Translations under genes and position numbers: made by a program
In this document: piece after piece, positions 28,731 to 35,105 of the stretch
Layout of the letters: the number at the start of each line of letters is the position of its first letter
How positions within the stretch are numbered: the stretch's first letter is position 1
Notes under the pieces: model-generated
Seen by the model: the letters and a program-made list of their open reading frames with translations, nothing else
Databases searched by the model: none
What the model was told of the DNA's origin: nothing
Source of the DNA: a virus
Lineage: Duplodnaviria; Heunggongvirae; Uroviricota; Caudoviricetes
Length of the DNA stretch: 54,981 nt
Virus record (IMG/VR): IMGVR_UViG_2875697941_000003
Strand: one strand, 5' to 3'

Positions 28731-30188
28731 TTAGGAGCGCCAAAAAAAACCTGAAAACAATATAATAACAGGATAAATTTCAAGGCGACCAAGAATCATA
28801 GCTATGCACATTAAACATTTTGCAATGTCATTAAGCACTCCGAATGACGATGCAGTAGCCCCAAAACCTAATCCCATATTATTAATACATGCAGCCACTG
28901 TTGCAAATGATGTAAGAAAATCATATCCCATACCATTTAACACCAGTATAAAAAACACCGTGAAGAGAGTATAAAGAAAAAAGAAACTCCATACAGACCT
29001 CATTACACGATCTGTAACTATCTTCCCTCCTACATTTACACTCAACAACGCTCTGGGATGAGAAAGCTGATTTATCTCATGTTTGCTTTGTTTGAAAAGT
29101 ATAAGAAATCGAAGTGACTTAATTCCACCACAAGTTGAACCTATACATCCCCCAAAGAAACTTGACAACAGCAAAAACACTATCGTGTGCGTGGGCCAAC
29201 TTGCATAATCCTGCGTAGCTAAACCATTATCAGTGAGCATGGAGCTGGCAAGAAAAAACGAATGAATAAAACTTCCATGCAAGTCATACATACCTATATG
29301 CCAGACCTGGAAAGAGGTAACAATGATCACCCCTAAGGCTATTAACAGAAAGAAACGAAGTTCAATATCTCTGATTAAAGGTTTTATCGTTTTCCTGCTA
29401 ATAACAATATACCAAAGAGTGAAGTTGAAAGCCGATAGCAGGGAAAAAGAACCAGCCACCAGCTCAACCAAATAGTTATTAAAATATCCGATACTCTCGC
29501 TATGAGTTGAGAAACCACCAAGCGAAACTGTGGAAATCCCGTGACAAATAGCATCAAACAAAGGCATTCCTGCAAGTCTATAACAGACAATACAAGCAAT
29601 ACCTAATAAAGAATAAGTTATCCACAGTGTCCGTGACGTATCGGCCAGGCGGGGAGTGAGTTTGTCATCCTTAAATGGCCCCGGCATTTCTGACTGATAA
29701 AGCTTTGCACCACCAATACCCAATAATGGCAATACAGCAACCGCCAGAACAATAACTCCTAAACCACCTATAAAATTTAACTGTGACCGATAGTACAAAT
29801 ATGCCCGAGGTAATGAACTAACATCATCAATTACAGTTGCTCCTGTTGTTGTTATTCCAGAAACCCCTTCAAACAGAGCATCAATGAACGTTAAATTAAG
29901 TTCTGAGTCAATCCATAAAGGGAATGCACTAATAACAGAAAACAAAATCCAAAACATTACAATTATAATAAACCCATCACGGGTACGTAATTGAATGCCA
30001 GATTTCTTAGTTGTATACCACGCTCCGCCACCAATGCAAAAAAATATAACGAAAGTTATAAAGAAAACGAACAGGCTTTTTTCTTTATAAAACAATGCTA
30101 CAACCATTGGTGGCAACATTGAAAGACTATAGAGCCAAACCAGGAACCCACACATATGAGTAACAACTCTTACATGAGATGTATTCAT
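28731..30188 (-). CDS. trkG: Trk-system K+ uptake protein TrkG (TrkH/TrkG family), prophage-borne
   Basis: Sequence MNTSHVRVVTHMCGFLVWLYSLSMLPP... recognised as K-12 Rac TrkG; multi-pass membrane protein. Confidence 0.9.
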   Translation of the reverse strand: MNTSHVRVVTHMCGFLVWLYSLSMLPPMVVALFYKEKSLFVFFITFVIFFCIGGGAWYTTKKSGIQLRTRDGFIIIVMFWILFSVISAFPLWIDSELNLTFIDALFEGVSGITTTGATVIDDVSSLPRAYLYYRSQLNFIGGLGVIVLAVAVLPLLGIGGAKLYQSEMPGPFKDDKLTPRLADTSRTLWITYSLLGIACIVCYRLAGMPLFDAICHGISTVSLGGFSTHSESIGYFNNYLVELVAGSFSLLSAFNFTLWYIVISRKTIKPLIRDIELRFFLLIALGVIIVTSFQVWHIGMYDLHGSFIHSFFLASSMLTDNGLATQDYASWPTHTIVFLLLSSFFGGCIGSTCGGIKSLRFLILFKQSKHEINQLSHPRALLSVNVGGKIVTDRVMRSVWSFFFLYTLFTVFFILVLNGMGYDFLTSFATVAACINNMGLGFGATASSFGVLNDIAKCLMCIAMILGRLEIYPVIILFSGFFWRS

Positions 30189-30325
30189 ATCTAAATATTC
30201 TTTCAATTATAACCACCTTGCTGCAATATTATGATTATACTGTATAAAATTTAACTCCTCTTAGATCTTACTTCACTGTTCCTTATGAAACAATCATCAA
30301 AATGAATCATATTGTAGTTAAGATT

Positions 30326-30802
30326 TTACTTTAAACACTGCTCGGTTATGTATTGCTGAGCACCTTCAAGTTGGGCCTGCATCATTACCAGTCGTTCCCG
30401 GAGGGTGAAATAATCCCGTTCAGCGGTGTCTGCCAGTCGGGGGGAGGCTGCATTATCCACGCCGGAGGCGGTGGTGGCTTCACGCACTGACTGACAGACT
30501 GCTTTGATGTGCAACCGACGACGACCAGCGGCAACATCATCACGCAGAACATCATTTTCAGCTTTCGCATCAGCTAACTCCTTCGTGTATTTTGCATCGA
30601 GCGCAGCAACATCACGCTGACGCATCTGCATGTCAGTAATTGCCGCGTTCGCCAGCTTCAGTTCTCTGGCATTTTTGTCGCGCTGTTCTTTGTAGGCGAT
30701 GGCGTTATCACGGTAATGATTAACACCCCATGACAGGCAGACGACGATGCAGATAACCAGAGCGGAGATAATCGCGGTTACTCTGTTCATTGCTGACCCC
30801 AC
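30326..30802 (-). CDS. Spanin inner-membrane subunit Rz (i-spanin)
   Basis: Near-identical to lambda Rz (N-terminal TM, coiled coil). Confidence 0.9.
30385..30570 (-). CDS. rzoR: Spanin outer-membrane lipoprotein Rz1 (o-spanin), nested in +1 frame inside Rz
   Basis: [23 protein letters not shown]... lipobox plus PPPPP stretch, lambda Rz1-like. Confidence 0.85.
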
Positions 30803-31200
30803 AAACAGATTTCACGCTCAATCTCACGACGAGTCATGAGACCTTTCCATTGCTTACCGCCAGCATATGTCCAGCGACGTAGCTGATCACATGCGCCTTT
30901 GATATCGCCCTGGTTTATTTTGCGAAGAAGCGTCGATGTTCTGAAATTGCCAGCACCCACGTTGTAAACGAATGAGTANTTCGTGTATTTTGCATCGAGC
31001 GCAGCAACATCACGCTGACGCATCTGCATGTCAGTAATTGCCGCGTTCGCCAGCTTCAGTTCTCTGGCATTTTTGTCGCGCTGGGCTTTGTAGGTAATGG
31101 CGTTATCACGGTAATGATTAACAGCCCATGACAGGCAGACGATGATGCAGATAACCAGAGCGGAGATAATCGCGGTTACTCTGTTCATTGCTGACCCCAC
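30787..31200 (-). other. Chimeric duplicate segment: Rz N-terminus (73 codons), single N at 30979, then endolysin C-terminus; probable misassembly
   Basis: ORF translation switches from Rz sequence to R sequence at the N; the copy differs from the full Rz by a few substitutions. Confidence 0.6.
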
Positions 31201-31679
31201 AAACAGATTTCACGCTCAATCTCACGACGAGTCATGAGACCTTTCCATTGCTTACCGCCAGCATATGTCCAGCGACGTAGCTGATCACATGCGCCTTTGA
31301 TATCGCCCTGGTTTATTTTGCGAAGAAGCGTCGATGTTCTGAAATTGCCAGCACCCACGTTGTAAACGAATGAGTAAAGAGCGCCGCGCGTTGTTTCCGG
31401 TATATCGACTTNGATGTACGGGTTAATTTGTCTGGCGACNGTGGCAAGGTCTTTATTCAAGAGTGNTTTGCATTCTGCTTTGGTATACGTTTTACCGAGC
31501 ATGATGTCTTTTCCTGTATGCCCGTGACATACAGTCCATACACCAACAATATCTTTGTATGGTATGTAGCTGACACCTTCCAGACCATCGTTACCACTTG
31601 GGCCAGTGATTAACACTGATGCTATAGCAATTGCTCCGCCACCAATAGCAGCAACGGCTTTTCGTAATGATGGAGGCAT
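31185..31679 (-). CDS. SAR endolysin (phage 21 R21-type, T4-lysozyme-like muramidase with N-terminal signal-anchor-release domain)
   Basis: N-terminus [26 protein letters not shown] (Gly/Ala-rich SAR TM) and C-terminal lysozyme sequence match R21; three internal Ns. Confidence 0.85.
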
Positions 31680-32080
31680 TATTCACCTCTCGCAGCCTTG
31701 CGCTTATCTTCTTTAATCTTGAAATAAAGGTTTGTCAGGTACGTCAGCAGGCCAAATACCAGGCTACCCAGCACACCTATTGCTGCCCACTGTGAGGGCG
31801 TGACTTTATCGAGCAGCTGTAAAAACCAGTAACCGGCACTACCTGCTGANTTATTCAAGAGTGTTTTGCATTCTGCTTTGGTATACGTTTTACCGAGCAT
31901 GATGTCTTTTCCTGTATGCCCGTGACATACAGTCCATACACCAACAATATCTTTGTATGGTATGTAGCTGACACCTTCCAGACCATCGTTACCACTTGGG
32001 CCAGTGATTAACACTGATGCTATAGCAATTGCTCCGCCACCAATAGCAGCAGCAACGACTTTTCGTAATGATGGAGGCAT
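31679..32080 (-). other. Chimeric duplicate segment: endolysin N-terminus (76 codons), single N at 31850, then pinholin C-terminus; probable misassembly
   Basis: ORF translation switches from R to S sequence at the N; copies differ by substitutions (VVAAA vs AVAA; LLDKV vs LLDRV). Confidence 0.6.
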
Positions 32081-32295
32081 TATTCACCTCTCGCAGCCTT
32101 GCGCTTATCTTCTTTAATCTTGAAATAAAGGTTTGTCAGGTACGTCAGCAGGCCAAATACCAGACTACCCAGCACACCGATTGCAGCCCACTGTGACGGA
32201 GTTACTCTATCGAGCAACTGTAAAAACCAGTAGCCAGCACTGCCTGCGGAGGTGCCGTAGGCAATGCCTGTTGAAATTTTGTCCATGGATTTCAT
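32080..32295 (-). CDS. Pinholin S21-type (class II holin) with dual-start motif
   Basis: [26 protein letters not shown]... matches phage 21 S21; two Met codons (32295 and 32286) behind a strong SD GGAGGTGA. Confidence 0.85.
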
Positions 32296-32396
32296 AGCCT
32301 CACCTCCGCACGGAACGGATGGCATAGTTATTATGTGTAGGCTTTCAGACACATCAATCAGAGCCTTAATTGATATATATGCTGGAGACGATGCAA

Positions 32397-32421
32397 TATA
32401 AAAAGCTCGCCGTAGCGAGCT
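32397..32421 (-). terminator. Rho-independent terminator between lipoprotein morons and the lysis cassette
   Basis: Minus-strand hairpin AGCTCGC-TACG-GCGAGCT followed by TTTTTATATTG. Confidence 0.6.
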
Positions 32422-32546
32422 AATAAAATGTATTTCTCTGATATTATGTTTATTTGTATTAGCTCAGACTTGACATCACAGGTTTCGTATATAGAACATC
32501 ATCAAATCTGTCAGTTTGCTATGAATGAGATATAGTAATTGAAGAG

Positions 32547-32942
32547 CTAACCTCGCATGTCAAAGCCAGATTTCTGAAAATCTCTGTAGACTTCCGGATT
32601 GTTGAAGGCCGGAAATTTGGCTTTATGAGCTGCGGACTTTATCGCTTCGCAATAGGCTTTATCACCGTTACTGGTAGATATTTTTAACGCCGTGCCATCC
32701 TGAGAGAATTCCATATGCAACCTGCATTTTTTCCCTTTCCAGTTATGCGGCTCATCAAGTTTGGCATTAATTGCAGCTCTGATTCCCCGCGCTTGCGCCC
32801 CCCATTCATCCTGATCATCCCAGCGTCCTGAACTGCAACTACCTGTAGCAGTAGTTTTGTGGCAATCTGAAGGGTGTAAAGGTGTGCATCCCGCAACAAA
32901 ACCGACCCAAAAAGTCAACATAACGATTTTCTTTAATCCCAC
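32547..32942 (-). CDS. Lipoprotein with TolA C-terminal domain (TolA-III)-like region, paralog 1
   Basis: Signal peptide plus lipobox VAGC; C-terminal region aligns with TolA domain III and with paralog 2 (conserved Cys pair, DG, F..D motif). Confidence 0.65.
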   Translation of the reverse strand: MGLKKIVMLTFWVGFVAGCTPLHPSDCHKTTATGSCSSGRWDDQDEWGAQARGIRAAINAKLDEPHNWKGKKCRLHMEFSQDGTALKISTSNGDKAYCEAIKSAAHKAKFPAFNNPEVYRDFQKSGFDMRG

Positions 32943-33092
32943 TTCTTGCTCCTCAATCCATTAAAATCTCAGCAATAGTAGTTGTTACGTCCGCCACTGG
33001 CTCAGAGCTGACTATCCGCTAAATTTAGCTCAGTGCCGTAGCTGTGTCAGAACAAACCTAAGCCGAAACCGTTTATTACAAAACAATAAATA

Positions 33093-33521
33093 TCAGGGTT
33101 TAAAATCCAGCACCCCATTTTGAAATACTTTATATACTTCCGGCGAAGGGGGGGCAGGTATATCAGCATTCTTTATCGCATTCATCGCTTCACGACATAA
33201 ATCGAGGTCTCCACTTTCTCTTTTAACCTCCAGTAGAAGGCCATTCGGGGCCATATGCATTCTCAGTGTACACTCTTTTCCTGAATACTTACTCGCATCC
33301 CCGAACTGTTTTTCGATGGCGCTCTTGATTTGATGGGCATACAGACGGATATCCTCACTAACATCAGAAGTACGTTCAGATGAACTCACATACTGTGTCT
33401 CTATTGCTTTATCGGAGTAATATGATGTACGGTCATGATAATTTGTCGATACAGCATCAGTGCACCCGATAATAATCCCACTAATAATCAACGTAAGAAT
33501 TGATGCGCTACGAAAACCCAT
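33093..33521 (-). CDS. Lipoprotein with TolA C-terminal domain (TolA-III)-like region, paralog 2
   Basis: Signal peptide plus lipobox IIGC; C-terminus QIKSAIEKQFGDASKYSGKECTLRMHMAPNGLLLEVK...PEVYKVFQNGVLDFKP closely resembles E. coli TolA C-terminus; own SD GAGGAA and TATATATAAT -10-like box upstream. Confidence 0.7.
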   Translation of the reverse strand: MGFRSASILTLIISGIIIGCTDAVSTNYHDRTSYYSDKAIETQYVSSSERTSDVSEDIRLYAHQIKSAIEKQFGDASKYSGKECTLRMHMAPNGLLLEVKRESGDLDLCREAMNAIKNADIPAPPSPEVYKVFQNGVLDFKP

Positions 33522-34107
33522 TTTTCCTCACATATGTCATATAGTAAAGGATTATATATACCGTTGTTTTGGACGCTCAAACAGCGAATCAGATCAAATA
33601 AAACGCACATTTGTTAACATTTACACAAAGTCTGCGTGGGATATTCTGAAAGAATATCCATAATGTGGAGAGAATCTATTGAAGTGCATGGTGCCGGGTG
33701 CCTCCCGGTGAACAAAATGTTCGTGATACCTGTCGGCGACAGAAAAGGTTAATGGTATCACCCCACCGCACAGGGGGATTCACCATGCAGGAGTTTTCTT
33801 AGCAAACTCACTGCGCGCCCGGCAACTCCCAACCACATAAAATGCGGAGTTTGTGGTATTTATGCATATAACTCGCAGGAATTATCTTAAAAAACTGATG
33901 TCGATCCGGATTAAAAAGAAGCAGGTCATCATCAGATGACTGGAAAAAAGGAAAAAAAATACTCATCATACAGTTTTGATTGCAGGGATGAGCCTGCTAT
34001 GCACAATATGCAGAATATAAGCAAGATAAAAATATGCAGGCATATTATTTCGGATTTTGTTATTAACACAACCTTTTTAATAATCATTTGGCATACAATA
34101 AACCAGT

Positions 34108-34133
34108 CCAAAAAGAACCGCCTAAACAGGCGG
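34108..34133 (-). terminator. Rho-independent terminator on the late-transcript strand
   Basis: Minus-strand hairpin CCGCCT-GTTT-AGGCGG followed by TTCTTTTTGG. Confidence 0.6.
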
Positions 34134-34404
34134 TTGGTCAATACAAAGGATGCTTCGTCTTTATTATAGTAATCTGAGGCGTCGGGTGTCTTGTATCAGA
34201 CAACATATTGTCCCGCTAAACAGCGAATTACAAACCACCCTGCAATGATCTCTCATCTCATTTTATATGAGTTGACGACATCAGGATAACGCATCATCAG
34301 CCCCTGCCAAGAAATATCAAAACTCCCGCCAGCAATGTGTTATCACAATATTGTAAAAAAAACACAGCACCGAAACTATAACTGGTCTCTGTTATAATTT
34401 GGAG

Positions 34405-34482
34405 CAGAAAGACCAGTTGCCCAACTAGCAGCATTCTCCCCTGCTTTCCTGACGTAAAAAAACCGCATTAAGCGGTTTTTTT
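34405..34482 (+). ncRNA. Candidate small RNA (~80 nt) antisense to the late leader region
   Basis: Extended -10 TGTTATAAT at 34390-34398, internal hairpin AGCAG...CTGCT, ends at the 34456-34482 terminator; no ORF. Confidence 0.3.
34456..34482. terminator. Bidirectional rho-independent terminator ~80-100 nt downstream of the Q-like gene (tR'-like)
   Basis: AAAAAAACCGC-ATTAA-GCGGTTTTTTT: symmetric A-tract/stem/T-tract. Confidence 0.75.
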
Positions 34483-34562
34483 ACGATGTCCATGTCTGCA
34501 ATCCGCCTCGCGATACAGCTGTGCGAAGCATAGCAAAATTGAAGCAGTTTATACGTAAGAAA

Positions 34563-35105
34563 TCAAGCCATTTTCTCAGCAAATGATTCACGCATGGGAA
34601 TATATAGGGCATACTCAGCAACAGCTAACCAATTAGCAATCCGTTTTTCGCATGTGCTAAAACACCACTCTGGGTGTCCATCATTTAGCAATTCAGCCAT
34701 TTTGCGCTTAGTCATCCCCCGCCCTTCATAGCGTTGCCGGAGAATGCAAATCAATCCTGGATGCTCTGCCAGCACCTCACTTATGACTCGATCAATACAT
34801 AACGCCTCTGCATCAGTACAATGCGCCAGCCAGCTCTTTTGCTTGCCGTTGATCATCTCTCGCAAAAACGCTTCCAGCTCAGCTTTCTCTATTCCCGCTT
34901 TTTTCATTCTACGCAGGGCTTCATTAATGGCTGTTTTCGTCAGTTTTTTGGATGCCAACAACTGATTGAACATATTCCCTGACCTGCCACCGCCAATATA
35001 CGACCAGCGCCCCCACATACGTAGTTTTCCCTGAATCCAGACACTTTCCAGCGTGGTGAGGCGAAGGTGTTCTCCGCTTTTTCCTGTATTCGTTGGGTAA
35101 ATCAT
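34563..35105 (-). CDS. Putative late-gene antiterminator (Q-like) by position
   Basis: Last gene of the nin block, followed by terminator and late/lysis genes; family not confirmed from sequence. Confidence 0.45.
   Translation of the reverse strand: MIYPTNTGKSGEHLRLTTLESVWIQGKLRMWGRWSYIGGGRSGNMFNQLLASKKLTKTAINEALRRMKKAGIEKAELEAFLREMINGKQKSWLAHCTDAEALCIDRVISEVLAEHPGLICILRQRYEGRGMTKRKMAELLNDGHPEWCFSTCEKRIANWLAVAEYALYIPMRESFAEKMA

Follow-up and report, generated by a model that had tools for sequence, protein, structure and literature searches.

A 54,981-nucleotide stretch of Caudoviricetes DNA (IMG/VR record IMGVR_UViG_2875697941_000003; hereafter the window) carries two tandem open reading frames (ORFs), ORF A and ORF B, whose products are small predicted lipoproteins ending in TolA's C-terminal domain (TolA-III). 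Both carry a genuine TolA-III domain and yet are not TolA. Their alignment with E. coli TolA suggests that the two are not equivalent, as the TolA docking determinants are kept in ORF A and not in ORF B. We tentatively propose that these proteins act as decoys for ligands that enter cells through TolA. The TolA_C similarity as such is already public through Pfam, PGAP and RAST labels; new relative to the literature searched are the architecture, its occurrence in prophages, on plasmids and in chromosomes, the distinction between ORF A and ORF B, and the reading of the proteins as decoys. The mentions found in that literature were passing ones only (PMC6854850; PMC10269471).

Domain and docking determinants of ORF A and ORF B

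The two genes and their ribosome-binding sites are as follows (SD, Shine-Dalgarno sequence).

33521 to 33093, minus strand: ORF A, a prolipoprotein of 142 amino acids (aa) with an ATG start and the N-terminus MGFRSASILTLIISGIIIGC followed by TD
33525 to 33529, minus strand: SD-like GAGGA upstream of the ORF A ATG, read from the sequence
32942 to 32547, minus strand: ORF B, a 131-aa prolipoprotein with a GTG start and the N-terminus MGLKKIVMLTFWVGFVAGC followed by TP
32949 to 32954, minus strand: SD GAGGAG, 6 nucleotides (nt) before the ORF B GTG, read from the sequence

An earlier note, made from the letters of the window, had described two lipobox-bearing ORFs at this place with C-termini resembling TolA domain III. 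Both ORFs are confirmed on the minus strand, and the resemblance is borne out by a profile search with Pfam PF06519 and by superposition on solved TolA-III structures; the TolA sequence given in that note is accurate when compared with E. coli TolA.

ORF A consists of a signal peptide with the lipobox IIGC (Cys20), a Cys-free disordered tether of ~30 residues and a TolA-III domain at ~51-142. Its lipoprotein signal, MGFR-SASILTLIISGII-IGC, is made up of a charged n-region, a hydrophobic h-region and the lipobox, as is that of ORF B, MGLKK-IVMLTFWVGF-VAGC. In ORF B the lipobox VAGC (Cys19) is followed by a conserved linker with a Cys-x9-Cys pair (PLHPSxCHKTTATGSCSSGRWDDQDEWG, residues 20-45) and by a divergent TolA-III domain at ~45-131 with the C-terminus FDMRG. 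The lipobox motif, for which the pattern [LVI][ASTVI][GAS]C was applied, is kept across both the ORF A and the ORF B families. The residue at +2 is Thr in ORF A and ORF B (Thr in the A family; Ala, Ser, Gly or Thr in the B family), and the +2 rule predicts outer-membrane sorting for both proteins. For ORF B, the GTG start is favored over a shorter PGAP call at Met8, because homologues on plasmids have ATG where ORF B has GTG. The Met8 start, found in a RefSeq copy (L006 9148-9954), strips the charged n-region off the signal peptide.

The C-terminal domains match PF06519 (TolA_C) with E-values of 2.4e-23 for ORF A (82.6 bits) and 1.3e-14 for ORF B (54.6 bits), both above the gathering cut-off of 25 bits. 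Residues 55-142 of ORF A align with residues 334-421 of E. coli TolA, gap-free through the last residue (E ~5e-28; PDB entries 1s62, 3qdp, 2x9a and 1tol), and ORF A is 60.5% identical to E. coli TolA-III; for ORF B the identity is 34% to TolA-III and 28% to ORF A. The predicted AlphaFold model of ORF A superposes on 2x9a_B with a root-mean-square deviation (rmsd) of 0.6 Å over 88 residues and a template modelling (TM) score of 0.96, and that of ORF B on 3qdp with an rmsd of 1.1 Å over 86 residues and a TM score of 0.92. For both proteins the model confidence, given as the predicted local distance difference test (pLDDT), is ~90 across the domain and below 50 across the first 38-50 residues. 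In the alignment, the cysteines that match the TolA disulfide C363-C388 are invariant in all members, ORF A and ORF B included. ORF A and ORF B hence share their Pfam domain, their predicted alpha/beta fold (a three-stranded sheet against helices) and their disulfide cysteines with E. coli TolA-III (~325-421; 1S62, 1TOL, 2X9A, 3QDP/3QDR).

What sets them apart from TolA is everything that precedes this domain. TolA domain I, the membrane anchor that couples to TolQR, and the helical domain II are absent from both proteins, which have a signal peptide, a lipobox and a short tether in their place. Whereas TolA reaches up from the inner membrane, the heads of ORF A and ORF B are predicted to hang from the outer membrane, without force transduction. 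On NF007065, the TolA equivalog model, ORF A (107.8 bits) and ORF B (53.7 bits) fall below the cut-off of 213 and cover only model positions ~293-386 of 387, so that neither is a full-length TolA by this model. ORF A does reach 75.6 bits on TIGR02794 (cut-off 59.45), on its C-terminal 98 positions alone, and it is because this part clears the cut-off that ORF A is named 'TolA' in databases; at least 1000 contigs carry its exact sequence under the name 'cell envelope integrity protein TolA'. The labels 'TolA' and 'tolA pseudogene', which thousands of database entries attach to ORF A, are wrong. Over their full lengths, both proteins match the profile of PHROG 5772 (E = 1.6e-62 for ORF A and 6.7e-65 for ORF B), a family without a function in the annotation.

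The surfaces on which TolA receives its ligands have been mapped by mutagenesis and structures. The g3p N1 domain, colicin N and the TolB N-terminus each add a strand to TolA beta3 (A415-K420), where the substitutions D418P and K420P eliminate binding and cause a full tol phenotype; a helix with Y340, I344 and I348 also contributes to docking, and colicin A uses the opposite edge of TolA, 375-LLDIKP-380 (PMC4339652; PMC7391070). The g3p proteins of If1 and of Ff both dock on TolA-III (structures 2x9a and 1tol). At these sites, in TolA numbering, the proteins compare as follows.

Helix 334-349: ORF A, 11 of 16 residues identical to TolA, with Y340, I344 and I348 kept; ORF B, 4 of 16, with Q in place of Y340
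Colicin A box 375-380: TolA, LLDIKP; ORF A, LLEVKR; ORF B, ALKIST
C-terminus of beta3: TolA, LDFKP (417-421); ORF A, LDFKP, identical; ORF B, FDMRG

The earlier note had treated both ORFs as TolA-III copies. The domain is present in both, but the copies do not appear to be interchangeable, given that the docking determinants are recognizable in ORF A only. All the lineages closer to TolA have a C-terminal strand of the TolA kind, with the sequence L[DE]F[KRAQ]P except for the Klebsiella IncF protein, where it is LDFRL, and the B family retains a motif of its own (FDMRG) in place of the TolA-like strand.

Lineages, carriers and selection

Two simple origins were tried and rejected. A recent tandem duplication as the source of ORF A and ORF B is ruled out by their 28% identity and their different lineages, and a recent capture of a known tolA as the source of ORF B is ruled out because the best full-length TolA among 1.84 billion representatives is at most 37% identical to it. 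In a neighbour-joining tree, the ORF A domain lies nearest to the TolA-III of E. coli (59% identity) and Klebsiella (56%) and is 47-48% identical to those of Yersinia, Pantoea and Serratia, and no genuine TolA in the tree exceeds 33% identity to ORF B. This tree is a sketch only, built with partial TolA sequences because the word-index protein search returned no full-length TolA for the ORF A query and mostly fragments for an E. coli TolA-III query.

The ORF A family is narrow, comprising E. coli and Shigella. ORF B is not confined to phages: it also stands alone, strongly conserved and widely scattered, on conjugative plasmids and in the chromosomes of other genera. Homologues with 84-88% aa identity occur on about 600 plasmids, among them I-complex conjugative plasmids (IncK2/Z, IncI1/B/O), where the gene lies 67 nt past the relaxase gene nikB, and the IncF plasmid pO157, whose leading region (psiB-psiA-hok) contains it. 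The homologue is a stand-alone chromosomal gene, in unrelated neighbourhoods, in Enterobacter, Citrobacter and Serratia. On one Serratia marcescens contig (L098 5001-7736) it follows nrdD-nrdG and immediately precedes GmrSD_N (DUF262-type) and HEPN-domain genes, a neighbourhood that looks like a defence island. DNA similarity between ORF B and its plasmid and chromosomal homologues begins ~30 nt upstream of the start codon and ends at the edges of the ORF. Since these homologues lie outside any lysis cassette, their function would be one that operates in living cells.

Across these contexts, the ratio of nonsynonymous to synonymous substitution rates (dN/dS) of ORF B is 0.04-0.13 at a dS of 0.45-1.06. 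Because dS is large between contexts while dN/dS is low, we conclude that ORF B is an old protein under tight constraint which has come to sit in elements of many kinds. Conservation of its linker equals that of its domain (linker dN/dS 0.02-0.10), and the Cys-x9-Cys pair persists in relatives down to ~37% identity, which suggests that the linker is a second functional element beyond current models. ORF A evolves faster, its domain having a dN/dS of 0.26 and its Cys-free linker one of 0.5. Of 80 IMG/VR loci whose ORF B is 99% identical, reading frames are unbroken in 78-80 and ORF A has its full 142 aa in 78. The genes are under selection, not decaying.

Within prophages the two genes travel together. 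ORF A stands in tandem with ORF B in 79 of the same 80 loci, and the Q gene of the window is present in just 44-45 of them. The comparison with phage mEp460_ev081 delimits the travelling unit.

32079 to 33712: module of both ORFs, the signals on their flanks and the holin, 99% identical to mEp460_ev081

Nothing else in the window is shared with that phage, whose Q differs (822 base pairs there, a DUF1133 Q here). The pair thus shows a moron-like presence and absence between conserved backbone genes, as the earlier note's term 'moron' implies. The exact cassette is found in 773 of 5426 complete E. coli genomes (14%) and in 1 of 50,697 phage records in INPHARED, and the BFVD viral structure library holds no match to the TolA-III fold. 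In a comparison of uropathogenic E. coli, the cassette had been listed as a 1355-bp phage-associated variable region (PMC6854850).

A variant of ORF A, 66% identical, occurs alone in a 933W-like late region with the order Q (PF03589), TfpB, AraC-type regulator, TolA-III lipoprotein, nanS-like esterase, DUF1378, DUF826 and holin. The slot of this variant is the one that stx occupies on maps of Shiga toxin (Stx) phages. Its position just upstream of the nanS-like gene upholds the earlier view of the site as one of the stx type.

Proteins of this build recur. An exhaustive search of representatives with ORF B gave 130 relatives; 72 of these are 100-170 aa long, and 52 of the 72 have a lipobox-like motif. 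TolA-III genes occur on about 1300 of 72,556 plasmids. The same build of lipobox, linker and TolA-III, closer to TolA, is found in Serratia (137-147 aa) and Enterobacter bugandensis (121 aa), and on Klebsiella plasmids the build recurs in a 144-aa protein (IncFIB/FII) and a 123-aa protein (10-kb ColRNAI). These further lineages are separate, with 31-58% identity to ORF A or ORF B over the domain.

The two Klebsiella cases are informative for their neighbours. On the K. pneumoniae ColRNAI plasmid NZ_CP107306.1 (L004 2541-3274), the gene for the 123-aa TolA-III lipoprotein (lipobox LTAC) overlaps that for a 121-aa TonB_C protein with a cleavable signal peptide, and both adjoin a colicin-like tRNase gene; we regard this pair as candidate decoys for the Tol and Ton import routes. 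The two genes have been recorded as "TolA" and "TolB family", without comment (PMC10269471). On the K. pneumoniae IncFIB/FII plasmid NZ_CP070426.1 (L104 4229-5258), a conjugative F-type plasmid, the gene for the 144-aa lipoprotein (lipobox ITAC, C-terminus LDFRL) directly follows a thioredoxin-fold gene whose TraF-family match is weak and sub-threshold.

Proposed decoys and competing explanations

Group A colicins, klebicins, cloacins and filamentous phages of the Ff and If1 types need to dock on TolA-III for entry, and in cells infected by a filamentous phage pIII occupies TolA, which gives colicin tolerance and resistance to superinfection. We propose, with not quite even confidence, that ORF A and ORF B are membrane-anchored decoys, that is, free TolA-III without the TolA anchor or domain II. 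Sec would export the preproteins, which would be lipidated at Cys20 (ORF A) and Cys19 (ORF B), and Lol would take both to the inner leaflet of the outer membrane, since neither has Asp at +2. There, a tether of 25-30 residues would place the TolA-III head where colicin T-domains and pIII N1 first emerge, and ligands would be captured by beta-strand addition, as TolA does. Because domains I and II, and with them TolQR coupling, are absent, no motor would pull the captured ligand in, and import would stall and abort. The carrier cell would be expected to tolerate group A bacteriocins and to resist TolA-dependent filamentous phages. The decoy might also trap E-type colicin-TolB complexes; the TolB N-terminus becomes exposed to TolA once colicin E9 is bound, according to a review (PMC7391070).

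The affinities of the natural partners bear on the dose that would be required. Colicin N binds TolA at 1 µM, whereas TolB binds TolA at 40 µM (PMC4339652), and the range given for TolA-TolB is 40-200 µM (PMC4339652; PMC7391070). As parasite ligands bind ~40 times more tightly than TolB, a small dose of decoy could protect the cell without fully disabling Tol-Pal. The proposal is most apt for ORF A, a close mimic of E. coli TolA-III; for ORF B the principle is probably the same, with ligands that differ or span a broader set. The carriers, whose hosts are exposed to TolA-dependent parasites, fit as well: If1 and Ff phages use pili that I- and F-type plasmids display, and a TolA-III lipoprotein together with a periplasmic TonB C-domain on bacteriocin plasmids would cover both import routes.

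There are precedents for parts of this scheme. Levengood-Freyermuth, Click and Webster reportedly made E. coli colicin-tolerant and leaky in 1993 by exporting free TolA-III to the periplasm. Such laboratory constructs have a head uncoupled from TolQR and follow the dominant-negative logic proposed here, but they are soluble, overexpressed and artificial, whereas ORF A and ORF B are natural, diverged, under selection, carried by mobile elements and predicted to be lipid-anchored. The immunity that pIII confers uses the same interaction of g3p N1 with TolA-III; pIII blocks the receptor, while ORF A and ORF B would pose as the receptor and thereby absorb the ligand. The nearest functional likeness to the proposed decoys is to T5 Llp, phi80 and N15 Cor and F TraT, small phage or plasmid lipoproteins that block entry at the envelope. 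The target that Llp and Cor inactivate is the receptor FhuA, and the site of action of TraT is the surface; none of them, unlike ORF A and ORF B, copies a domain of the host import machinery. No sequence relation to known exclusion or defence proteins was detected, PHROG giving only families without a function and PADLOC giving none.

Several observations weigh against the decoy proposal. Because the pair comes first after Q, its transcription late in the lytic cycle would be expected in any case, a timing that suits a lysis or envelope role equally, and the promoter scan of the region, with 11 sites against 7.5 ± 2.9 in shuffled sequence, does not rise above shuffles. ORF B appears to be without the TolA docking determinants, its purifying selection across genera looks housekeeping-like rather than like an arms race or the tracking of a host, and the conservation of its linker suggests a specific partner that a decoy does not need. 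Free TolA-III should also compete for TolB, with an expected fitness cost and tol-like leakiness. PADLOC has no match to either protein at E <= 1, and the full-text literature search found no colicin- or phage-tolerance phenotype and no functional study for such proteins.

Some of these points would be better accommodated if ORF A and ORF B were modulators of Tol-Pal, whose heads capture the TolB N-terminus or another partner, damp the mobilisation of Pal and alter outer-membrane stability, vesiculation or permeability, with tolerance a side effect at most. TolB uses the very beta3 site that is kept in ORF A, and a review of Tol-Pal has proposed that vesicle output could be regulated via TolB-Pal or TolB-TolA interactions (PMC7391070). 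The conservation of ORF B in Escherichia, Citrobacter, Enterobacter, Serratia and Klebsiella fits a host partner better than fast-evolving invaders, its occurrence as a stand-alone chromosomal gene points the same way, and its conserved Cys-x9-Cys linker hints at a second specific contact. However, the weak affinity of TolA for TolB (40-200 µM) means that a high copy number would be needed to compete, a tol-like phenotype is costly, and ORF B is without the beta3 motif that TolB would use. Bacteriocin plasmids, pilus-bearing plasmids and the TonB C-domain partner are also better explained by an import block. We therefore find modulation of Tol-Pal rather doubtful as the primary function; if true, these would be the first natural regulators of Tol-Pal carried by mobile elements.

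A different ligand is conceivable mainly for ORF B, the TolA-III/TonB-C fold then serving as a generic strand-capture module for a conjugation or pilus component, a periplasmic toxin of contact-dependent systems or an outer-membrane protein plug. The docking edges of ORF B are unlike those of TolA, yet its family conserves them (FDMRG), and strand addition of the beta type is promiscuous (PMC4339652). On I-complex plasmids the ORF B homologue lies next to the relaxase gene, and the Klebsiella IncF equivalent comes after the thioredoxin-fold gene with its weak, sub-threshold TraF-family match. Against this, nothing points positively to any particular alternative ligand, and phages and chromosomes without conjugation genes have this gene too, making this explanation unlikely.

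The position of the pair directly between Q and the holin-lysozyme-Rz genes, on the same strand, and the co-travel of the holin in the shared module would be accounted for by an accessory role in late lysis, in which the proteins are made only in lytic growth and titrate Tol-Pal to weaken the outer membrane, aid lysis or block superinfection of the dying cell. Such a role is very improbable. The ORF B homologues on plasmids and chromosomes (84-88% identical) have no lysis genes nearby, a terminator separates the pair from the holin, and many lambdoid phages lyse without the cassette, present in the single phage record noted above. Rz is moreover present, and a 61-aa Rz1-like proline-rich lipoprotein ORF inside the Rz frame (30385-30570) suggests a full spanin pair.

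That ORF A is a tolA pseudogene fragment left by illegitimate recombination and ORF B a decaying duplicate, as the PGAP mark 'incomplete; missing N-terminus' on ORF A in RefSeq genomes might imply, is barely credible, because a start codon, an SD, a signal peptide and a lipobox have been gained by each ORF separately, the ORFs are intact in 78-80 of 80 loci under clear purifying selection, the same architecture recurs in several independent lineages, and the exact ORF A sequence is that of the at least 1000 contigs mentioned above.

Returning to the decoy proposal, its consequences would be several. It would help to explain the colicin tolerance of wild E. coli that have intact receptors and Tol genes, conjugative plasmids could offset the cost of pili exploited by filamentous phages, and it would be relevant to bacteriocin and phage therapeutics and to phage display in non-K-12 hosts. 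It would also be a clean case of a mobile element re-anchoring the ligand-binding head of a host machine as a dominant-negative. A wider version is possible, although we hold it more loosely than the proposal for the pair itself: mobile elements of Enterobacterales may carry a widespread immunity layer of uncoupled TolA-III lipoproteins, sometimes with soluble TonB C-domains, as import decoys. Within it, ORF A would be the mimic of E. coli TolA, and ORF B would stand for a pan-enterobacterial lineage that is older and has a ligand range of its own. If real, such a layer would be a major but hidden factor in how susceptible natural strains are to colicins and filamentous phages.

The late region around the pair

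The genes and signals that surround the pair are listed in the order of transcription.

34563 to 35105, minus strand: Q-like late antiterminator (DUF1133 and Phage_antitermQ), upstream of ORF A
34486 to 34448, minus strand: hairpin terminator, -19.7 kcal/mol, right after the Q stop codon
34192 to 34104, minus strand: promoter-like site AAGACA-18-TATAAT, then a hairpin and U-run; AT-rich spacer, ~270 nt past the Q hairpin
33632 to 33818, minus strand: match to the Rfam small RNA STnc100 (RF02076), 86.6 bits against a gathering score of 47, between Q and ORF A
33551 to 33580, minus strand: sigma-70-like site TTGAGC-18-TATAAT, 30 nt upstream of the ORF A start
32396 to 32421, minus strand: terminator-like hairpin AGCUCGC-UACG-GCGAGCU and UUUUUAU, between ORF B and the holin gene
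32080 to 32352, minus strand: P21-type holin, the first lysis gene past the pair
28731 to 30206, minus strand: trkG potassium transporter, immediately past the lysis genes, an arrangement also seen in the Rac prophage

The site between Q and the lysis genes proposed in the earlier note stands, with Q upstream and holin, lysozyme and Rz downstream; after the holin, lysozyme, Rz and trkG follow on the minus strand. The signals that the note had taken to point to expression in the lysogen are upheld in part. The SD and the terminator are present, the latter a convincing hairpin after ORF B (32421 to 32404; -13 kcal/mol, z-score -4.1, with 0 of 200 shuffles equally stable). A -10 box is also present, although the promoter is a consensus match only. 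The sigma-70-like site before ORF A, which matches the consensus at 10 of 12 positions and lies inside the module common to mEp460_ev081, is a lead only, because the total of the promoter scan is not above that of shuffled sequence. ORF A and ORF B are separated by a spacer of 150 nt. The cassette has a GC content of 0.42 against 0.478 for the window, and the spacer from Q to ORF A one of 0.40. No tRNAs were found between Q and the pair, in contrast to Stx phages.

Upstream, the site and hairpin at 34104-34192 may represent pR'/tR' for this type of Q. The hairpin at 34448-34486 is very stable and symmetric, with A and U runs on its flanks. The STnc100 match is possibly a leader RNA of the late region; its 3' hairpin is AT-rich and without a U-run. 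The edge of the mosaic module (33712) falls within this match.

Downstream, two direct duplications of 397 bp, at 30582-31376 (98.5% identical) and 31453-32247 (96%), each contain a single N (30979 and 31850, respectively). They mimic duplicated lysozyme, Rz and holin genes and produce chimeric ORFs at 30787-31200 and 31679-32080. Duplicated lysis genes as a biological feature were rejected, as the duplications look like unmerged contig overlaps and a finished genome that carries this prophage shows single copies. A hokD-like gene and chromosomal genes lie past ~36.4 kb, and the prophage occupies approximately the first 36 kb of the window.

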